From contig JBGAHS010000004.1 in assembly GCA_044226015.1 (NCBI GenBank), positions 416,001-480,000 of the forward strand: a DNA stretch of 64,000 nucleotides, written 5' to 3'. The position numbers were made by a program, and so were the translations under genes. Below the pieces are notes generated by a model. It made no database searches and was not told where the DNA came from. It saw only the letters and a program-made list of their open reading frames with translations. Shown here in pieces: positions 54,577-62,447 of the stretch; position 1 is the first letter of the stretch; each line of letters opens with the position of its first letter. The stretch is from Candidatus Obscuribacteraceae bacterium (GTDB lineage: Bacteria; Cyanobacteriota; Vampirovibrionia; Obscuribacterales; Obscuribacteraceae).

Positions 54577-55935
54577 TTAGCGTTTCCTTTTGCGTGGTGC
54601 TTGAAGAAAGGCATCATCAGTAACCAGGTCTAAGTCCGCGCCGCCATTTCTTTCGATTCCAGCAACTTTGCCGGTGTCTCCGGCATATTGCCAAAACTGA
54701 GCTTTCTTCCACGGTGCAGGGACGTTCATTTCTGGCACTTTCCAATTCGCTAACCAGAGTTCGTATTTCTTAAGGGAACTGTTATCTGTTCCTAGATTTT
54801 CTCGCGCAAATCGAGGATTCATATATAGTGCAATTCTCGTATCCGGACCAAGCATCTTCTTCACACCATCACAGAATTCGTTGATGATTTTTACTCTTTC
54901 CGCGGAGGTGTACTCATGACCATCGGGAGCTGTCTTCCACATTGGCTTGGTTTCATCCTCCTCTACATCCATGACGACTGGCAGTCTGTTATCGGTTTTG
55001 CCAACAGTTTTTGCAAATAGCTCTATTTGAGCTTGCATTGATGCATCAGGTCGAAAGAAATGATAATAGCCCAGCTTGACACCATTGGCGGTGGCATTTT
55101 CTCTGTTCTGTTCGAATTTGGGATCTACAATTGTGGTGCCATCTCTTTTTGACCCTGTTGCCTTCAAGAAAGCAAATTCAACGCCACTTGCTGCTACCTG
55201 CTTCCAATCGATATCGTTGTCCCAGCGGGAGACGTCGATTCCTCTTGTCTTATTCAAAGTCTTTTCGACTCTATCTGTTATTTCTTTATTTGACCAACGC
55301 TCGGGCTGATCTCCGATCTTGTAAGCACCGTCGTGTCCCAGGTCACGATGAGAAATACGCCTGGCTTCCATATGGATTTGTTCGTAGGTCCAAGGAATTT
55401 TGCCGAGCTTGTTTTCTGCATTCATTCGTATCAGAACCTGTTCAGGTCCTTCGCCTTGTTGCAGTTGATCAAGCTTAAAGTTCTTGCTGTTGAAGAGGTG
55501 ATTGAAATAAACCTTCTCTGCTGCTTTTCTTTCTTCAGGTGTTCTTGGAGCCGTGTCACCACTTGGATTGTCTTCAATTTTTACTGGTTTCACATCTTTA
55601 TTTGCCGGAGCGGCGGCACCATCTTTAGCTGTTGTGGCAGTGGCTTCTGGTTTTGAAGCATCCTTTTTCTCAGTGTTAGGTTCGACTTTGGTTTGCTCAG
55701 GTTTGCTTTCTGCCTTTGGAGAATTTAATTGTTTCCCTTCAACTATTGATGGCTTTATTTCAGGGATAGCTTGAGCTTCTATTTTGCTTGGATTTGGTGA
55801 CTTGCTAGGATTGGCGCTATCAACAACAGTGCTAGTTGTTTTGCGCACGGAAAATTCTTGCGAAAGTGCATCTGAAGCTTTTTGCTCTTCACTCTTGTTT
55901 TTTCCATCTTGCTTTTCGATTGATATGTCTGCCAT
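54577..55935 (-). CDS. GH25 lysozyme/muramidase with long disordered N-terminus
   Basis: GIDVSRW, IDW, FAFLKAT, GYYHFF, PVVMDVE (DxE), LWLANW, FWQY, DLD. Confidence 0.9.
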   Translation of the reverse strand: MADISIEKQDGKNKSEEQKASDALSQEFSVRKTTSTVVDSANPSKSPNPSKIEAQAIPEIKPSIVEGKQLNSPKAESKPEQTKVEPNTEKKDASKPEATATTAKDGAAAPANKDVKPVKIEDNPSGDTAPRTPEERKAAEKVYFNHLFNSKNFKLDQLQQGEGPEQVLIRMNAENKLGKIPWTYEQIHMEARRISHRDLGHDGAYKIGDQPERWSNKEITDRVEKTLNKTRGIDVSRWDNDIDWKQVAASGVEFAFLKATGSKRDGTTIVDPKFEQNRENATANGVKLGYYHFFRPDASMQAQIELFAKTVGKTDNRLPVVMDVEEDETKPMWKTAPDGHEYTSAERVKIINEFCDGVKKMLGPDTRIALYMNPRFARENLGTDNSSLKKYELWLANWKVPEMNVPAPWKKAQFWQYAGDTGKVAGIERNGGADLDLVTDDAFLQAPRKRKR

Positions 55936-56816: not shown

Positions 56817-58346
56817 TTAATGGAAGAAATGCATCAATTGCTCGTCACGATCAACCTTGTAGCGCCAACCTTCCATTAAGTCTTGGCCGATGCAGCATCC
56901 GGCAAAACCACCTATTCGGACACAGAACTCATCTTTCTTGATGGGACCCACTCTGATGGTGACATAATCCTTCACCATGCTGATGGAACCACCAACACCT
57001 GTGCCGCGCTCAAGCTCGCCATTTAGATCTAACCCGATTGCTTTTGCAGTCGGGTAATCTATTATGGTGGCAAATGAGCCGGTATCAATGAAGGCGCTGA
57101 TTTTGTGCCCGTTGATTTCAACCTCAATTATGTCTTTACTTGCGATGTGATGGCATGGTATGTCGTATAGAGGATCGAAGTTTGCTTCTTTTTTCAGTTT
57201 CTTATGAAGGTCGACTCTGCCTGCCTTATCATCTATAGAGTATTGATAGCCGTAAATGAAATCTTGTCCAATTAGATTTGTGGAAAAATCATTTCCGGCT
57301 GCTGCTATTCTGATTGGAAGTTTTCTTTGGAAATTCCCCAATTTAATTTCTGCATCTGTCTGAGTTATCGGTATGGATACACCAGCCCAACCACGAGCAT
57401 AACCAGCTGGTTGAGCATTGTTAATATCAACTCCTGCTTTCTTCAGTGGCTCATCGTAGAAAAAAGCACTCGCGCCCGTATCAAAAATCGCTTTTACTGG
57501 ATGCCCGTTTACCACTAGATCAACATTCATGTGTCCATGTTCGCCGCGTTTAAAGAAGAAACTAGCTGTTTCTGGCAGCGAGTCTGCATCCGAAGGTCTG
57601 CTCAATTCTTTGATGTCTAGTGTTAAATCTGCAACAGATTCCAACTTCTTATTAGCTGTATCAGATGCTCCCGGAGCCGGAACATCGATGCCTTTCTTTT
57701 GATAGGGTGCGGGGTTCGCGTCTGAACTCATGAAGTAATGAAGTATGGCATTTTGTTTCTTATCTGGAACTTTTGGCCAGGGGTTCGCAGGTGACGAGGA
57801 CTTTACTGCAGCAATTGCAGCATCGTCGAGAGGTTTGAATCCAGATGATTGAACGACCTTGATGTTCGTTAGAGTTCCATCCTTTTGAGCGATAAATCCT
57901 ATTGCCACTCTGTAGGGTGTTTTCAACTTTGGTGGATGCCAATTGTATTTTAGTTTTCGTAGCAGTTCTTTGTGGTAGGTGGACCAATCCTCATCAGCTT
58001 TGCTTTGTCTCATGCCGAGGTCCATTGTCTTGTATTGAGAGTTCAGCGCGTTAGTTAGATAGTCAATTTTTGCAATTAAAGTATCTTCCGGCTCGCCTTT
58101 TCTAGCAGCGATCTCAATTTCTTCCAGCTTGTCCAAATATGGACCTATTCCCATTCCTAAAGATTTTGCTGTAAGAAGCTTTTTGAAAATAGCTTGTCTC
58201 TTGTCTAAAGCAGGACCCGGCGCAAATTGATAGGTTGTTGGGTCTTGTTTTATTATCTGAACGGCTTTTGCTATTGGAATCGCGTTGAATAATAGGATTG
58301 CAAAAAATAGCGCTACCCAATTGAAGGTTTTCATTGAAACTCTCAT
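56817..58346 (-). CDS. secreted TonB-C-terminal domain plus tandem retropepsin-like aspartic protease
   Basis: Signal peptide; KDGTLTNIKVVQSSGFKPLDDAAIAAV (TonB_C); AIFDTGAS...LIGQD and AFIDTGS...CIGQD. Confidence 0.82.
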   Translation of the reverse strand: MRVSMKTFNWVALFFAILLFNAIPIAKAVQIIKQDPTTYQFAPGPALDKRQAIFKKLLTAKSLGMGIGPYLDKLEEIEIAARKGEPEDTLIAKIDYLTNALNSQYKTMDLGMRQSKADEDWSTYHKELLRKLKYNWHPPKLKTPYRVAIGFIAQKDGTLTNIKVVQSSGFKPLDDAAIAAVKSSSPANPWPKVPDKKQNAILHYFMSSDANPAPYQKKGIDVPAPGASDTANKKLESVADLTLDIKELSRPSDADSLPETASFFFKRGEHGHMNVDLVVNGHPVKAIFDTGASAFFYDEPLKKAGVDINNAQPAGYARGWAGVSIPITQTDAEIKLGNFQRKLPIRIAAAGNDFSTNLIGQDFIYGYQYSIDDKAGRVDLHKKLKKEANFDPLYDIPCHHIASKDIIEVEINGHKISAFIDTGSFATIIDYPTAKAIGLDLNGELERGTGVGGSISMVKDYVTIRVGPIKKDEFCVRIGGFAGCCIGQDLMEGWRYKVDRDEQLMHFFH

Positions 58347-58544
58347 TGTTTCTTTTCTGTTGTAGTAGTTATACTCGGATCCATTTTCAAAAATGGATCT
58401 CATCCCTAAGACCTAATTATAGTTCTTCGGGGTTGCATAGTTTGCTGGCTTGTCGATGAAGATAGAACACTGATGCTTCTCAAGTGGTCGCGTGTATCTG
58501 CTATATACGATGCCGACTCGCTCGTTGGTATTTTACCGAGGTCT

Positions 58545-58584
58545 GGTAGAAAAACTAAATCGTTAACGATTTAGTTTTTCTACC
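58545..58584. repeat. perfect 40-bp palindrome with no spacer
   Basis: GGTAGAAAAACTAAATCGTT|AACGATTTAGTTTTTCTACC; all 20 pairs checked. Confidence 0.97.
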
Positions 58585-58607: not shown

Positions 58608-58674
58608 AAAAAAAAAAGTTTCGCAGGCAAACAGACACTGCCGAAAACCTGGCAGTGTCCGTTTGCCTGCGAAA
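58608..58674 (-). terminator. long hairpin plus U-tract downstream of the IS1595-like gene
   Basis: 24-bp stem (58619-58642 / 58651-58674) with one mismatch that is G-U on the minus strand, 8-nt loop, then a T10 run on the minus strand. Confidence 0.7.
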
Positions 58675-58764: not shown

Positions 58765-59787
58765 TCAGGCTACGATTGTGTCCAAGGGGATTCGAACATT
58801 AATGGGAGAAACGTAATTGCGAAGTTCTTGCCTGCTGGCAGATTCTTTGTCGAGTATTTTGAAAATAAGATCATGCTTTTCCCATATGTCTTTTTGAATG
58901 GTTGACCAATAGAGAGCCAGATGCAATTGAAGGTATTTTCTACTTATGGTCTGCGCTATTCGTTTTATATTTTCGATGAAGTCAATTACAACCTTTTTGC
59001 TGCTCTCAGGCAGATTTATTGACGAACTATTTTTATTCTTCTTGGACAATCTAAATTGATGTCCCGCAAGTGACTGAATGATTCCCTTCATTTCAAGCGA
59101 AGTAAGGAGAAATAACAGGTCCGAAAAATCAAGCATAGTGGCATCAACCAATTCGTCTAAAGTTGAAAGTTCAACAGTCATTAGTTGATTGAGCAAAGAT
59201 TTCTCCATGTCACTAAGGGCAACGTCTTCCAATTCGTCGCATTCAGGTTTTGCAGAGGCGTCTTCTTTGTCTGTGTTTTTTTGTGCAGCATTAGACTCTT
59301 CCATCGTTGTTTGTTCAGCCCTTGGATGTTGTCTTGCAGGCGTTTCGGTGCTACGGCGAGCGAAGATTTCAGTGAACTCACTAGACGGCACCGTTGGCAG
59401 AATTTCCATCAGCTCTAGCAAATTCAGAGCAATTGTTTTCGCTATACGTTCGGCGGTGTCAGACGTTACTTCTAAATATTCAGCGAATTCACTACAGGAA
59501 AATCTAATACCCATTTGTAAGAACCAGAGTCCGGCGAACCATGCGCGTATTCGCCTGATTCGCTCTAAAAAGGTCCCGGCGAAGATCCAATTTTCTGAAC
59601 CACATGATGAGCATTTGCGAGTTCGGAAAGAATCTGTAGCTTTTAAATCTGTATTTCCACATGAAGAACAAGGTTTATTTTGATTCCAGCCTTTTTCAAA
59701 AAGATAATCAACTACACTCATTTCGTCAGGGAAACGTTTGTTGAATTCAGGAAACATGAGCACAAAGGCACTTGGCTCTCTATTCAT
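58765..59787 (-). CDS. IS1595-transposase-derived protein: Zn ribbon, HTH and DprA-like winged helix, no DDE core
   Basis: FPDE..CSSCG..CSSCG, AGTFL..WF, EFAEYLEVTSDTA HTH; LDELVDATML..LLTSLEMKGII..AGHQF wHTH; ISRKYLQLHL tail. Confidence 0.7.
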   Translation of the reverse strand: MNREPSAFVLMFPEFNKRFPDEMSVVDYLFEKGWNQNKPCSSCGNTDLKATDSFRTRKCSSCGSENWIFAGTFLERIRRIRAWFAGLWFLQMGIRFSCSEFAEYLEVTSDTAERIAKTIALNLLELMEILPTVPSSEFTEIFARRSTETPARQHPRAEQTTMEESNAAQKNTDKEDASAKPECDELEDVALSDMEKSLLNQLMTVELSTLDELVDATMLDFSDLLFLLTSLEMKGIIQSLAGHQFRLSKKNKNSSSINLPESSKKVVIDFIENIKRIAQTISRKYLQLHLALYWSTIQKDIWEKHDLIFKILDKESASRQELRNYVSPINVRIPLDTIVA

Positions 59788-59793
59788 GGAACC

Positions 59794-59837
59794 ACCTCAC
59801 AGGAATTGGCGTATATTCCTAATAACGTTGGTGAGGT
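59794..59837 (-). promoter_or_regulatory. RBS-sequestering hairpin upstream of the IS1595-like gene
   Basis: ACCTCAC (59794-59800) pairs with GTGAGGT (59831-59837) and AGGAAT with ATTCCT; the minus-strand RBS GAGGT lies in the stem. Confidence 0.55.
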
Positions 59838-59988
59838 CAAAAAAGTTCAATGAATAAGGTTAACTTCTTCTGGTATTTCTTGCTGACAACGAATCGTTCT
59901 CTTGTTTTTCACACGGTTGCTGCTTAGTCAATTTCGCCTGAATCTCATTCGGGAGTCTGGCTGCTGTGCATCCGAGTTCAATGTAGTT

Positions 59989-60055: not shown

Positions 60056-61429
60056 TCAGGCCAGGCAGGCTGCTTTGACTGTTTCAAACTTCGCTGTGAA
60101 GTGTCTTAGATGGGGCGCCTCTGACACAATCTTCATGCCGCAAACGGAATTGCGTCTTTCATACACGTTTCGTGCTGCTTCAATCACGTAATCGTAGTGG
60201 CTTTGAGAATAAACTCTTCTGGGCAATGCCAGTCGCACTAGGTCTTGCCTTGCAGGAGTTTGCAAACCGTCTTCGCGAGTTTTTCCGAACATCACGGTGC
60301 CGATTTCACAAGCTCGTATTCCTGCTTCGAGATAGAGTTCGCAAACGAGTGCTTGTCCGGGCAGTTCTGCCGGAGAGAGGTGTGGCAAGAATTCTCTTGC
60401 ATTCAGATAGATTGCGTGAAGACCCGGCGGTCTGACAATTGGAATATTGTTCAGAATGAGTCCATTTGCAAGATAACTTGCAGATGCATGACGGTAAGTC
60501 AGGTAGTCTTCATCCGTCGCTTCCCATAGTCCCGTAGCAATTGATTCTAAATCGCGTCCGGCAAGCCCACCATAAGTTGGGAAGCCCTCAGTAATAATCA
60601 ACGTGTTTTTCAGCTCTGCTGCAAGAGATTCGTCGCGAAGCGCGATGAATCCGCCCATGTTTGAGAGCCCATCTTTCTTTGCGGACATCAAGCAAGCATC
60701 TGCAAAGGAAAAAATGATTTTTGCAATAGAGCGAACGCTGCTGGTGTTCATTCCTTCTTCTCGAACCTTAATCAGAAACGCATTCTCTGCAAAGCGCGCC
60801 GCATCAATAATGAGTGGCTTATGGAATTTCTTTGCCAGGCTGCTAACCATGCTTATGTTTCTCATGGACACCGGTTGTCCACCAACTGCATTGTTTGTAA
60901 TCGTTAGCATAATAAAGGGCACTTTTGTGCTATCTTTCTCCAAAAGCTCTGTAAGTGCGTTGATGTCTATGTTTCCGCGAAACAACTCATCGTACTTATC
61001 AGTGGACGGAAGGTCTAAAGCTGTAGCTCCAAGAACCTCAATATTTGCTCTTGTGGTGTCGAAATGTGTGTTACTGGGAACGATATCGCCGGACTTCACA
61101 GTTTGTGCAAAGAAGATTCTCTCTGCTGCTCTACCCTGGTGAACAGGTATAACGTGCGGGAATCCGAAAATTTCTTGTATTGATTTTTCAAATTTGAAAA
61201 AGCTGCTGCACCCTGCGTAAGACTCATCTCCTATCATCATTCCTGCCCACTGCACGCTGGAAAGCGCAGAAGTGCCGCTGTCAGTCAGGAAATCGATTAT
61301 CGTGTCTTCTGCTTTTATTTGAAAGAGGTTGTATCCTGCGTCTTGAAGAAGTTCTTTTCGCTCTGTCTCAGTTGAAAATCTTATGGGCTCTACTACTTTT
61401 GTTCGAAAGGGTTCGATGATTGTTTTCAT
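60056..61429 (-). CDS. tnaA: tryptophanase (beta-eliminating lyase)
   Basis: IDFLTDSGT, GDESY, HQGR, HFDTT, GGQPVS, MSAKKD (PLP Lys), EGFPTYGG, LRHFTA; SAKKD, FPTY and His in RHF favour Trpase over tyrosine phenol-lyase. Confidence 0.82.
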   Translation of the reverse strand: MKTIIEPFRTKVVEPIRFSTETERKELLQDAGYNLFQIKAEDTIIDFLTDSGTSALSSVQWAGMMIGDESYAGCSSFFKFEKSIQEIFGFPHVIPVHQGRAAERIFFAQTVKSGDIVPSNTHFDTTRANIEVLGATALDLPSTDKYDELFRGNIDINALTELLEKDSTKVPFIMLTITNNAVGGQPVSMRNISMVSSLAKKFHKPLIIDAARFAENAFLIKVREEGMNTSSVRSIAKIIFSFADACLMSAKKDGLSNMGGFIALRDESLAAELKNTLIITEGFPTYGGLAGRDLESIATGLWEATDEDYLTYRHASASYLANGLILNNIPIVRPPGLHAIYLNAREFLPHLSPAELPGQALVCELYLEAGIRACEIGTVMFGKTREDGLQTPARQDLVRLALPRRVYSQSHYDYVIEAARNVYERRNSVCGMKIVSEAPHLRHFTAKFETVKAACLA

Positions 61430-61829: not shown

Positions 61830-62447
61830 TTAGGCTGTTTGCAATCGCTCTAGATAGTAGTTTCGTACAGACACTGTTTGTGGATGAATGGGGCGAGCCG
61901 TCTCCATCAGGTGCAGTAGTCCCAAGTCTGTAGCTGTGACGATAGCTTTATTCACGTTGAATTCATTGTCGTAAGACAAAGCTGCCCAAATTGGCGCTGT
62001 ATAATCTGCCGGACGTGTGTCATCGAGGCAATCTGCAAGATAGAGTACTTCGGACAATTTGCACATCGGCACATTGCCTAAAGTGTGCTCGGCAACCGCC
62101 GCGAGAAGGTCATTGTTGGTTATGCCTAACTCTATTCTGGCGACAGCTGCAGCAACCGGTCCGTGTAACAAATGTCCATGCGCTTCTTCAATCGGTCCAA
62201 AAGGGACGGCCAGCTCTCTTGCTTTTGCAACCAGAACATCAGCTTTCCATTCTTTGCATGCATCATGAAGCCAGCCACCGAGGCGGGCTAAATACACATC
62301 GCAATCATGTCTTTCTGCGAGTTTTTGTGCTACTTTGACCACACCCTTGATGTGTTTCAATCGCTTTTGTGAAACCCTTGGCTCTAGCCATTGTTTGATA
62401 TAAGTTTCGTCTATTTGCGGCGGAATACCCTCGATTGAACTGGACAT
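61830..62447 (-). CDS. yqeK: HD-domain Ap4A hydrolase, YqeK-like
   Basis: RLKHIKGV, LHDACK, LLHGPVAA, EHTLG, LYLAD. Confidence 0.85.
   Translation of the reverse strand: MSSSIEGIPPQIDETYIKQWLEPRVSQKRLKHIKGVVKVAQKLAERHDCDVYLARLGGWLHDACKEWKADVLVAKARELAVPFGPIEEAHGHLLHGPVAAAVARIELGITNNDLLAAVAEHTLGNVPMCKLSEVLYLADCLDDTRPADYTAPIWAALSYDNEFNVNKAIVTATDLGLLHLMETARPIHPQTVSVRNYYLERLQTA

Follow-up and report, generated by a model that had tools for sequence, protein, structure and literature searches.

The window analysed here (the whole 64,000-nucleotide stretch of DNA from a Candidatus Obscuribacteraceae bacterium) contains an open reading frame that an earlier note, made from the letters alone, had described as an IS1595-like transposase scaffold with its DDE core replaced by a DprA-type winged helix. 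That note took the product for a catalytically dead, domesticated DNA-binding protein or else for a non-autonomous element of new architecture. The question raised by this locus is what such a protein is and what it does.

Domain architecture of the window protein

Reading of the open reading frame confirmed that it is intact and that it carries the motifs quoted in the earlier note. Its parts are as follows.

58765..59787, minus strand: 340-aa open reading frame, an IS1595-derived scaffold without the DDE core and with a DprA-type winged helix (Pfam, profiles, model)
59599..59727, minus strand: IS1595-type zinc ribbon, residues 21-63 (C40, C43, C59 and C62 invariant, R55 nearly so)
59407..59550, minus strand: three-helix helix-turn-helix region, residues 80-127 (homologous to the IS1595 N-terminus)
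59314..59355, minus strand: family motif R-S-x-x-T-P-x-x-x-H-P-x-x-E, residues 145-158 (conservation)
59047..59220, minus strand: DprA-type winged helix, residues 190-247 (predicted ComM-docking module)
58792..59007, minus strand: C-terminal helices with the ISRKYLQ motif, residues 261-332 (homologous to the IS1595 C-terminus)

In Pfam, residues 190-242 match DprA_WH above its cut-off (E = 4.9e-6), residues 21-63 match Zn_ribbon_IS1595 below its cut-off (E = 4.3e-4), and DDE_Tnp_IS1595 (PF12762) gives no match at E <= 1. The NCBIfam models returned nothing for the window protein, NF033547 included, and identified two distant hits of the family search, from other families, as IS1595 transposases. 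A family profile, built from an alignment of 87 sequences from the window genome and its relatives, aligns with the N-terminus of a true IS1595 transposase (probability 98.1, E = 7e-14), with a second IS1595 transposase over 247 columns including the C-terminal helix (probability 98.0), and with the C-terminus of the host's DprA (probability 98.4, E = 6e-15). Both the scaffold and the winged helix are thus as the earlier note had them, and the loss of the DDE core is borne out as well. The AlphaFold2 model (pLDDT 91.8, pTM 0.81) is helical, with short strands only in the zinc ribbon, in one pair and in the wing, and it contains no RNase H sheet; the positions aligned to the IS1595 catalytic signature (given as E-D..D..N-x-I-E in PMC12561309) are replaced in the family, and the catalytic glutamate is not conserved in the C-terminal helices. 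E158 is the sole acidic column conserved in at least 90% of the family alignment, and the family therefore has no D-D-E triad.

Invariant in the alignment are the four cysteines and R145; the columns conserved at 90% or more are F15, R55, T72, S146, T149, H154, P155, E158, L231, G242, R283, K284, Q287 and Y289, the last of which is H in the window copy. The R-S-x-x-T-P-x-x-x-H-P-x-x-E motif begins just past the position of the lost first catalytic aspartate and is retained in variants without the winged helix (see below). The helix-turn-helix region is likely to be the part that reads the arms of the palindromes described below. By its homologies, the window protein is a descendant of an IS1595 transposase in which the DDE core has been exchanged for a winged helix resembling that of the host's DprA. 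The description 'catalytically dead' holds for DDE chemistry, the only chemistry for which it is shown. The AT-richness that had been remarked on is real and modest (the gene has a GC content of 0.409, its neighbours have 0.427 and 0.460, and the window as a whole has 0.458), and it is not peculiar to this gene, given that a TPR gene nearby also has a GC content of 0.409.

Four other neighbours on the minus strand encode a GH25 lysozyme with a long disordered N-terminus (54577-55935), a TonB C-terminal domain fused to two retropepsin-like protease domains (56817-58403), a tryptophanase-like beta-eliminating lyase (60056-61429) and an HD-domain protein (61830-62447). None of the four accompanies the family gene in the relatives checked.

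Copies, selection and element ends

The window genome contains 8 dispersed copies of the gene on 5 contigs, about 35-63% identical to the window copy, and the only other profile match in this genome is the winged helix of dprA. Family matches (E <= 1e-40) occur in 87 of 104 Obscuribacterales genomes, with 1-20 per carrier genome, in none of 300 genomes from other families of the same phylum, and in none of the viral contigs searched. The family forms about 690 clusters at 50% identity (E <= 1e-30), and its ESM Atlas clusters are commonest in Melainabacteria. Among the paralogs, one of 527 aa (L037:4026-5660; G000:C4:83725-85305) has a linker with a long acidic insertion and short Gly-Val-Asp repeats, and the 16-20 matches per genome in G206 and G051 (genus g6; L197-L224) include long forms of 400-530 aa with additional Cys-bearing C-terminal segments.

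In a quick tree of 88 rows, the 8 window-genome copies form a single clade (SH-aLRT 99), as do 10 of the 11 copies of G100 and the 20 rows of G124 and G148, and genus g2 has four ortholog groups that are kept from one species to the next; copies therefore duplicate to new places within lineages and are inherited thereafter. The family is under purifying selection (dN/dS of 0.12-0.42 in 20 of 23 pairs, the other three being saturated). The word 'domesticated' is apt with respect to selection, but this is no lone tamed gene, because its copies multiply within lineages.

Close paralogs have flanks in common over variable lengths, without sharp fixed ends. A comparison across 89 copies found upstream and downstream flanks alike in five (in four of them by way of the palindromic site) and no terminal inverted repeats at fixed ends, which upholds what the earlier note had observed for the window copy; for the family, neither a fresh insertion with a matching empty site nor fixed ends were found from which a 7-9-bp target-site duplication of the IS1595 kind might be read. 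No IS1595 transposase was found in the window genome by a profile that detects them in relatives. Genuine IS1595 in one relative, G197, provides a positive example, with terminal inverted repeats and 8-bp duplications; this genome holds three copies of an intact IS1595-like element of about 1.0 kb with terminal inverted repeats and 8-bp target duplications (L221:1391-2393, L223 and L225).

Palindromic sites around the family genes

A palindromic site with a CG-N4-CG core lies beside the gene in 68 of 89 copies (at most 320 bp upstream or 400 bp downstream), in most copies just upstream of the promoter motif. Many sites are perfect zero-loop palindromes of 40-64 bp; the family site spans about 28 bp, its arm sequence is paralog-specific, and the outer arms vary from copy to copy. 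The window copy has a single site, without a surrounding halo of further sites, on the far side of its likely terminator.

58608..58674, minus strand: likely intrinsic terminator, a 24-bp hairpin followed by ten T (common to the closest paralog)
58545..58584, no strand assigned: cognate palindrome, perfect over 40 bp, zero-loop, core CGTTAACG

The stretch that resembles the closest paralog begins at the promoter motif, takes in the gene and the terminator, and ends just past this palindrome. A five-unit array of the window copy's site type (L038; G000:C11:295153-295478) lies about 1.4 kb past a 5S rRNA gene and 81 kb from the closest paralog, and a tandem array of about 29 units of a different repeat type is found on G000:C11 near 156 kb.

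We mapped sites in the window genome by a location-blind rule (core plus repeated half-site), which yielded 276 sites, distributed over 78 loci. Of these loci, 41 are no more than 50 kb from one of the 8 genes, a span amounting to 9.5% of the genome, compared with a mean of 6.9 and a maximum of 30 over 10,000 random placements; 52 lie within 100 kb. Paralog-specific palindromes are thus clustered around the genes, and most copies lie within a halo of sites of their own type. The clusters vary in core and arm type, and many are tandem arrays (periods of 27-29, 51-58, 62-74 and 80-116 bp), with 65-69-bp units recurring at many loci.

Similar halos are seen in relatives: 36 of the 50 sites listed (of 52) in G201 lie within 50 kb of 3 genes, 19 of 27 sites in G153 are near family genes, and in the closed genome G080, 25 of the first 50 listed sites (of 76) surround 2 genes, a third gene being surrounded by a third arm type. 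G067 has few satellites, and 10 of its 25 sites are simply the upstream sites. Compared with its reversed control, a single site pattern shows enrichment in 51 of 87 carriers and in 1 of 17 non-carriers, counts that overstate the association because the genomes are kin; in the lone enriched non-carrier, G204, there is a copy of the gene truncated by the end of its contig. The other 36 carriers show no enrichment of this one pattern, which was derived from carriers and misses other core types. In genus g2, sites stay at orthologous intergenic places between genomes of 74-86% DNA identity, indicating that new sites arise rarely. In one ortholog group of this genus the gene is bracketed by two sites 1.2 kb apart, and G027 lacks a 3,165-bp segment between two sites, with a hybrid site remaining; this is the only clean site-to-site deletion seen, other breaks lying both close to and distant from sites.

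Promoter motif and putative regulon

Upstream of the window copy lies a further conserved feature.

59821..59850, minus strand: ECF-sigma-like promoter motif, TGAACT, a 16-nt spacer and CGTT

The motif (TTGAACTTTT, spacer and CGT), which we take to resemble ECF sigma promoters, is found shortly upstream of 79 of 89 family genes (chance rate 1.3%), upstream of comM in 29 of 30 genomes (chance 3.8%), and upstream of yraN in 8 of 12, the window genome among them. A matrix built from 67 sites of other genomes has 38 matches in the window genome, including all 8 family copies. An NCBIfam scan of 18 of the 38 downstream genes, plus dprA, left six without a match; the best matches of the others were to an ECF sigma factor, YifB/ComM, ComEC, DnaB, DnaE, XseA and RecJ and, below their cut-offs, to ComF, RadC, SbcC and Spy/CpxP-like proteins. 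The ECF sigma gene at G000:C1:118244 (L111) is preceded by the motif.

Because the motif is common to comM and other transformation genes, the family gene likely belongs to a competence or DNA-stress regulon, and this sharing suggests that the motif acts as a competence promoter. A search of the 2.2 kb upstream of dprA did not turn it up, and this, together with its presence before dnaB, dnaE, xseA, recJ, sbcC and Spy/CpxP-like genes, means that the regulon may be a broader stress response. Judged from motif occurrence, Obscuribacterales would have an apparently autoregulated ECF sigma regulon comprising comM, comEC, comF, radC and yraN together with the other genes just named, which is possibly the competence regulon of this lineage. 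No documentation of competence in this lineage was found in the literature searched.

Predicted docking of ComM

The winged helix of DprA, a preprint reports, binds and recruits ComM, and in Helicobacter pylori it does not bind DNA (bioRxiv 10.1101/2024.10.21.619469). The predicted complex of window protein residues 184-252 with ComM of the same genome scores an ipSAE of 0.78, compared with 0.00 for the best of three controls; the mark for this score is one reached by 116 of 157 solved pairs and by 2 of 215 mismatched pairs. From run to run, no fewer than 97% of the contacts are the same, and the partner pLDDT is at least 77. The predicted interface includes residues 229, 232 and 233, which by our own motif mapping would correspond to the tested Vibrio residues L350, E353 and L354; at the position matching E353, 61 of the 87 sequences have E and 18 have Q. 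The complex score may reflect likeness to the DprA-ComM pair. On these predictions, docking of ComM is a better reading of the winged helix itself than DNA binding. The earlier note had neither the cognate palindromes nor the promoter motif common to the family and the competence genes.

Variants lacking the winged helix

Five of the 9 copies in the closed genome G197 have no winged helix, and the same is true of 7 copies retrieved from G096 and of one copy each in G084, G088 and G163. Most of these variants nest inside the family (FastTree on shared columns), so that loss of the winged helix looks secondary; L234 and L235 are basal, with modest support, and L234 additionally lacks the R-S motif and the promoter motif. 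These two loci (L234:1685-2590 in G201; L235:391-1134 in G163) encode IS1595 derivatives with neither DDE core nor winged helix, and are possible evolutionary intermediates.

In these variants the halos give way to tandem arrays of sites beside the promoter. Directly upstream of 13 of the 14 motif-bearing loci without it we counted 4-21 cores (strict count), and the fourteenth has a degenerate array; periods are 35-37 bp, and 48 in L235. Among the 88 copies with the winged helix, a single one has three or more cores in the 700 bp upstream, and there is no array there. In L026 (G088), seven sites centred on GAATTC lie between about 100 and 440 bp upstream of the gene, separated by unique spacers, unlike the near-identical arrays of the other variants. 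The contrast is seen within one genome, G197: each of the five copies that lack the domain has an in-place array of 11-23 sites, and the five together have one weak distal match within 40 kb, whereas the four winged-helix copies have 1-2 sites upstream and, at a distance, 0, 4, 1 and 2. No sites occur in a control region of G197 that surrounds a true IS1595. The comparison, which involves small numbers and losses mostly in one genus, suggests that the core goes with amplification of sites and the winged helix with their dispersal. Copies without the winged helix have also multiplied (the five of nine in G197), and ComM docking is thus not needed for duplication of the gene, unless it is lent in trans.

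A proposed mechanism and its alternatives

We propose, with a probability of roughly 0.5, that the protein is a site-specific adaptor, active at competence, through which ComM is put to use in the local copying of sites and, sometimes, of the gene. The protein would likely be made during competence and would likely bind its own palindrome of about 28 bp, a dimer reading both arms, whether in the duplex or in a hairpin formed by single-stranded DNA on its way in. It would pair two sites, as transposases pair ends, and its winged helix would, by the predicted contact, dock or load the host's ComM helicase, which (probably with the YraN nuclease) would extend strand exchange from the site. The outcome would be variable-length copies, site-to-site deletions and duplications, and perfected palindromes; sites would be copied nearby and the gene itself moved rarely, with variable flanks, the protein acting in cis close to its gene. 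The hybrid site of G027 and the variable length of the flanks common to paralogs speak for this reading; against it count the lone site of the window copy, the few satellites of G067, the multiplication of copies without the winged helix and the rarity of new sites. That the protein binds its sites and contacts ComM, a joint claim of this reading and of the one considered next, we hold to be quite probable.

The same contact could serve protection rather than spread. The protein would then itself act, at its sites, as a roadblock or decoy that stops incoming DNA lacking the gene from overwriting the locus, and sites linked to the gene would protect it and hence pile up. According to PMC12378983, comM is a frequent target of disruption by mobile elements, which its product may in turn remove; SsnA with its repeats lowers the integration of repeat-bearing DNA, according to PMC11893778. 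Such a role would suit a protein that can act solely in cells already carrying it, as well as sites that persist at orthologous places though their flanks diverge, and the predicted complex fits both readings alike. However, protection leaves unexplained the new 28-bp sites tens of kb away and the 65-69-bp units recurring at many loci, and in carriers comM is intact and has kept the motif. We consider this explanation unlikely.

A new catalytic centre is a second possibility, and one that we regard as rather improbable: R145-S146-T149-H154-E158, together with R283-K284-Q287-Y289, would form a site-specific recombinase or nickase acting on 11-6-11 palindromes, with the winged helix extending its range. 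These residues are 90-100% conserved and are kept in the variants without the winged helix, which still amplify sites, and the natural core folds compactly (pLDDT 93.6, pTM 0.90). The ortholog group with a bracketed gene and the hybrid site of G027 would fit such a centre too. Yet R145-S146 aligns with the Gly/Arg/Lys loop of IS1595, and SRKY, too, comes from that ancestor, so that structural or DNA-binding roles suffice for these residues. The window copy, moreover, has H at 289, and slippage can make tandem arrays once binding sites are under selection.

We give little credence to an ordinary domesticated DNA-binding regulator or nucleoid organiser, for which the palindromes would be operators or bidirectional terminators with no role in recombination. 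The placement of sites is what such a protein might produce, in that most copies have a site immediately before their promoter motif (68 of 89 have one beside the gene), and 76 of the 78 repeat loci are intergenic, 30 of them between convergent genes (crude open reading frame call); orthologs are also stable and under purifying selection. But the sites track chromosomal distance from the cognate gene and not gene function, copy number varies from 0 to 20, and the predicted ComM-docking surface is left unexplained. Finally, the earlier suggestion of a non-autonomous element, in its classical form of an IS1595 derivative moved in trans by intact transposases, has its IS1595 ancestry and the intact IS1595 elements of some relatives to recommend it and is largely refuted, there being no terminal inverted repeats or defined ends and no IS1595 transposase found in the window genome, the IS1595 ends in G197 being unlike the palindromes, and a dN/dS of 0.12-0.42 not being needed by such an element.

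Relation to known systems

The zinc ribbon, helix-turn-helix and C-terminal helices are homologous to those of IS1595 DDE transposases (NF033547; PF12760, PF12762) and stand in the same order. Unlike these, the family has no DDE triad, RNase H sheet, terminal inverted repeats or fixed ends, the winged helix replaces the core, and there are a host promoter motif and old, diverged copies under purifying selection. With respect to the DprA winged helix (PF17782), the family consensus closely matches the C-terminus of host DprA, and the predicted ComM interface is on the same helix; in DprA, however, the domain sits on a Rossmann fold that binds single-stranded DNA and loads RecA, and here it sits inside a sequence-specific transposase scaffold. 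The DprA Rossmann domain (TIGR00732) has no match in the window protein and does match host dprA.

REPINs, the palindromes of RAYT transposases, are genome-wide, unlike the sites of this family, which form halos around each cognate gene. As described for RAYT-REP/REPIN systems (PMC3337134, PMC3116915, RAREFAN), a persistent transposase-derived gene is accompanied by cognate intergenic palindromes, both single and in tandem. RAYTs are HUH tyrosine transposases, a fold that the window protein lacks (no Pfam match to HUH/Y1 at E <= 1), and the family differs further in its zero-loop site centres and its predicted ComM-docking domain. The Ssn/NTS system of Neisseria and others, as presented in PMC11893778, is similar in that the gene is flanked by its own hairpin repeats of about 28 nt, the repeats are homolog-specific and there is a link to natural transformation. 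SsnA is a small GIY-YIG nuclease that cuts single-stranded DNA (PMC11893778), unlike the 340-aa multi-domain window protein, which is predicted to borrow a helicase and has no Pfam match to GIY-YIG or to another recognised nuclease domain. Membership in IS1595 proper, DprA, RAYT/REP or Ssn/NTS was rejected for want, respectively, of DDE core and terminal inverted repeats, Rossmann domain, HUH and GIY-YIG. We found no account of the family in the literature searched, the coverage of which is incomplete. We rate its architecture and genomic behaviour as categorically new, and the mechanism as a proposal.

Implications

Most known mobile elements oppose transformation, either breaking comM or keeping competence repressed (PMC12378983). 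This family, by contrast, appears to join the competence regulon and to mimic the ComM-docking surface of DprA. Somewhat short of even odds, in our estimate, is the view that it represents a new selfish system, which would have abandoned catalysis, adopted a host DprA docking domain and a competence promoter, and come to program ComM/YraN at its own palindromes. Beside RAYT/REP and Ssn/NTS the family is a third independent origin of a gene with its own palindromic repeats, here without a recognisable enzyme.

Variants with and without one domain, which differ as halo from in-place array, make the spread of bacterial palindromic repeats directly testable, and the roughly 690 diverged clusters with differing site arms are a natural set for the study of protein-DNA specificity. 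The family possibly offers a way to load ComM at a chosen site. If the proposed mechanism is true, nature would have provided a compact protein that loads a branch-migration helicase in a sequence-specific manner, available as hundreds of diverged protein-site pairs, and the family would seed recombination sites around each of its copies.
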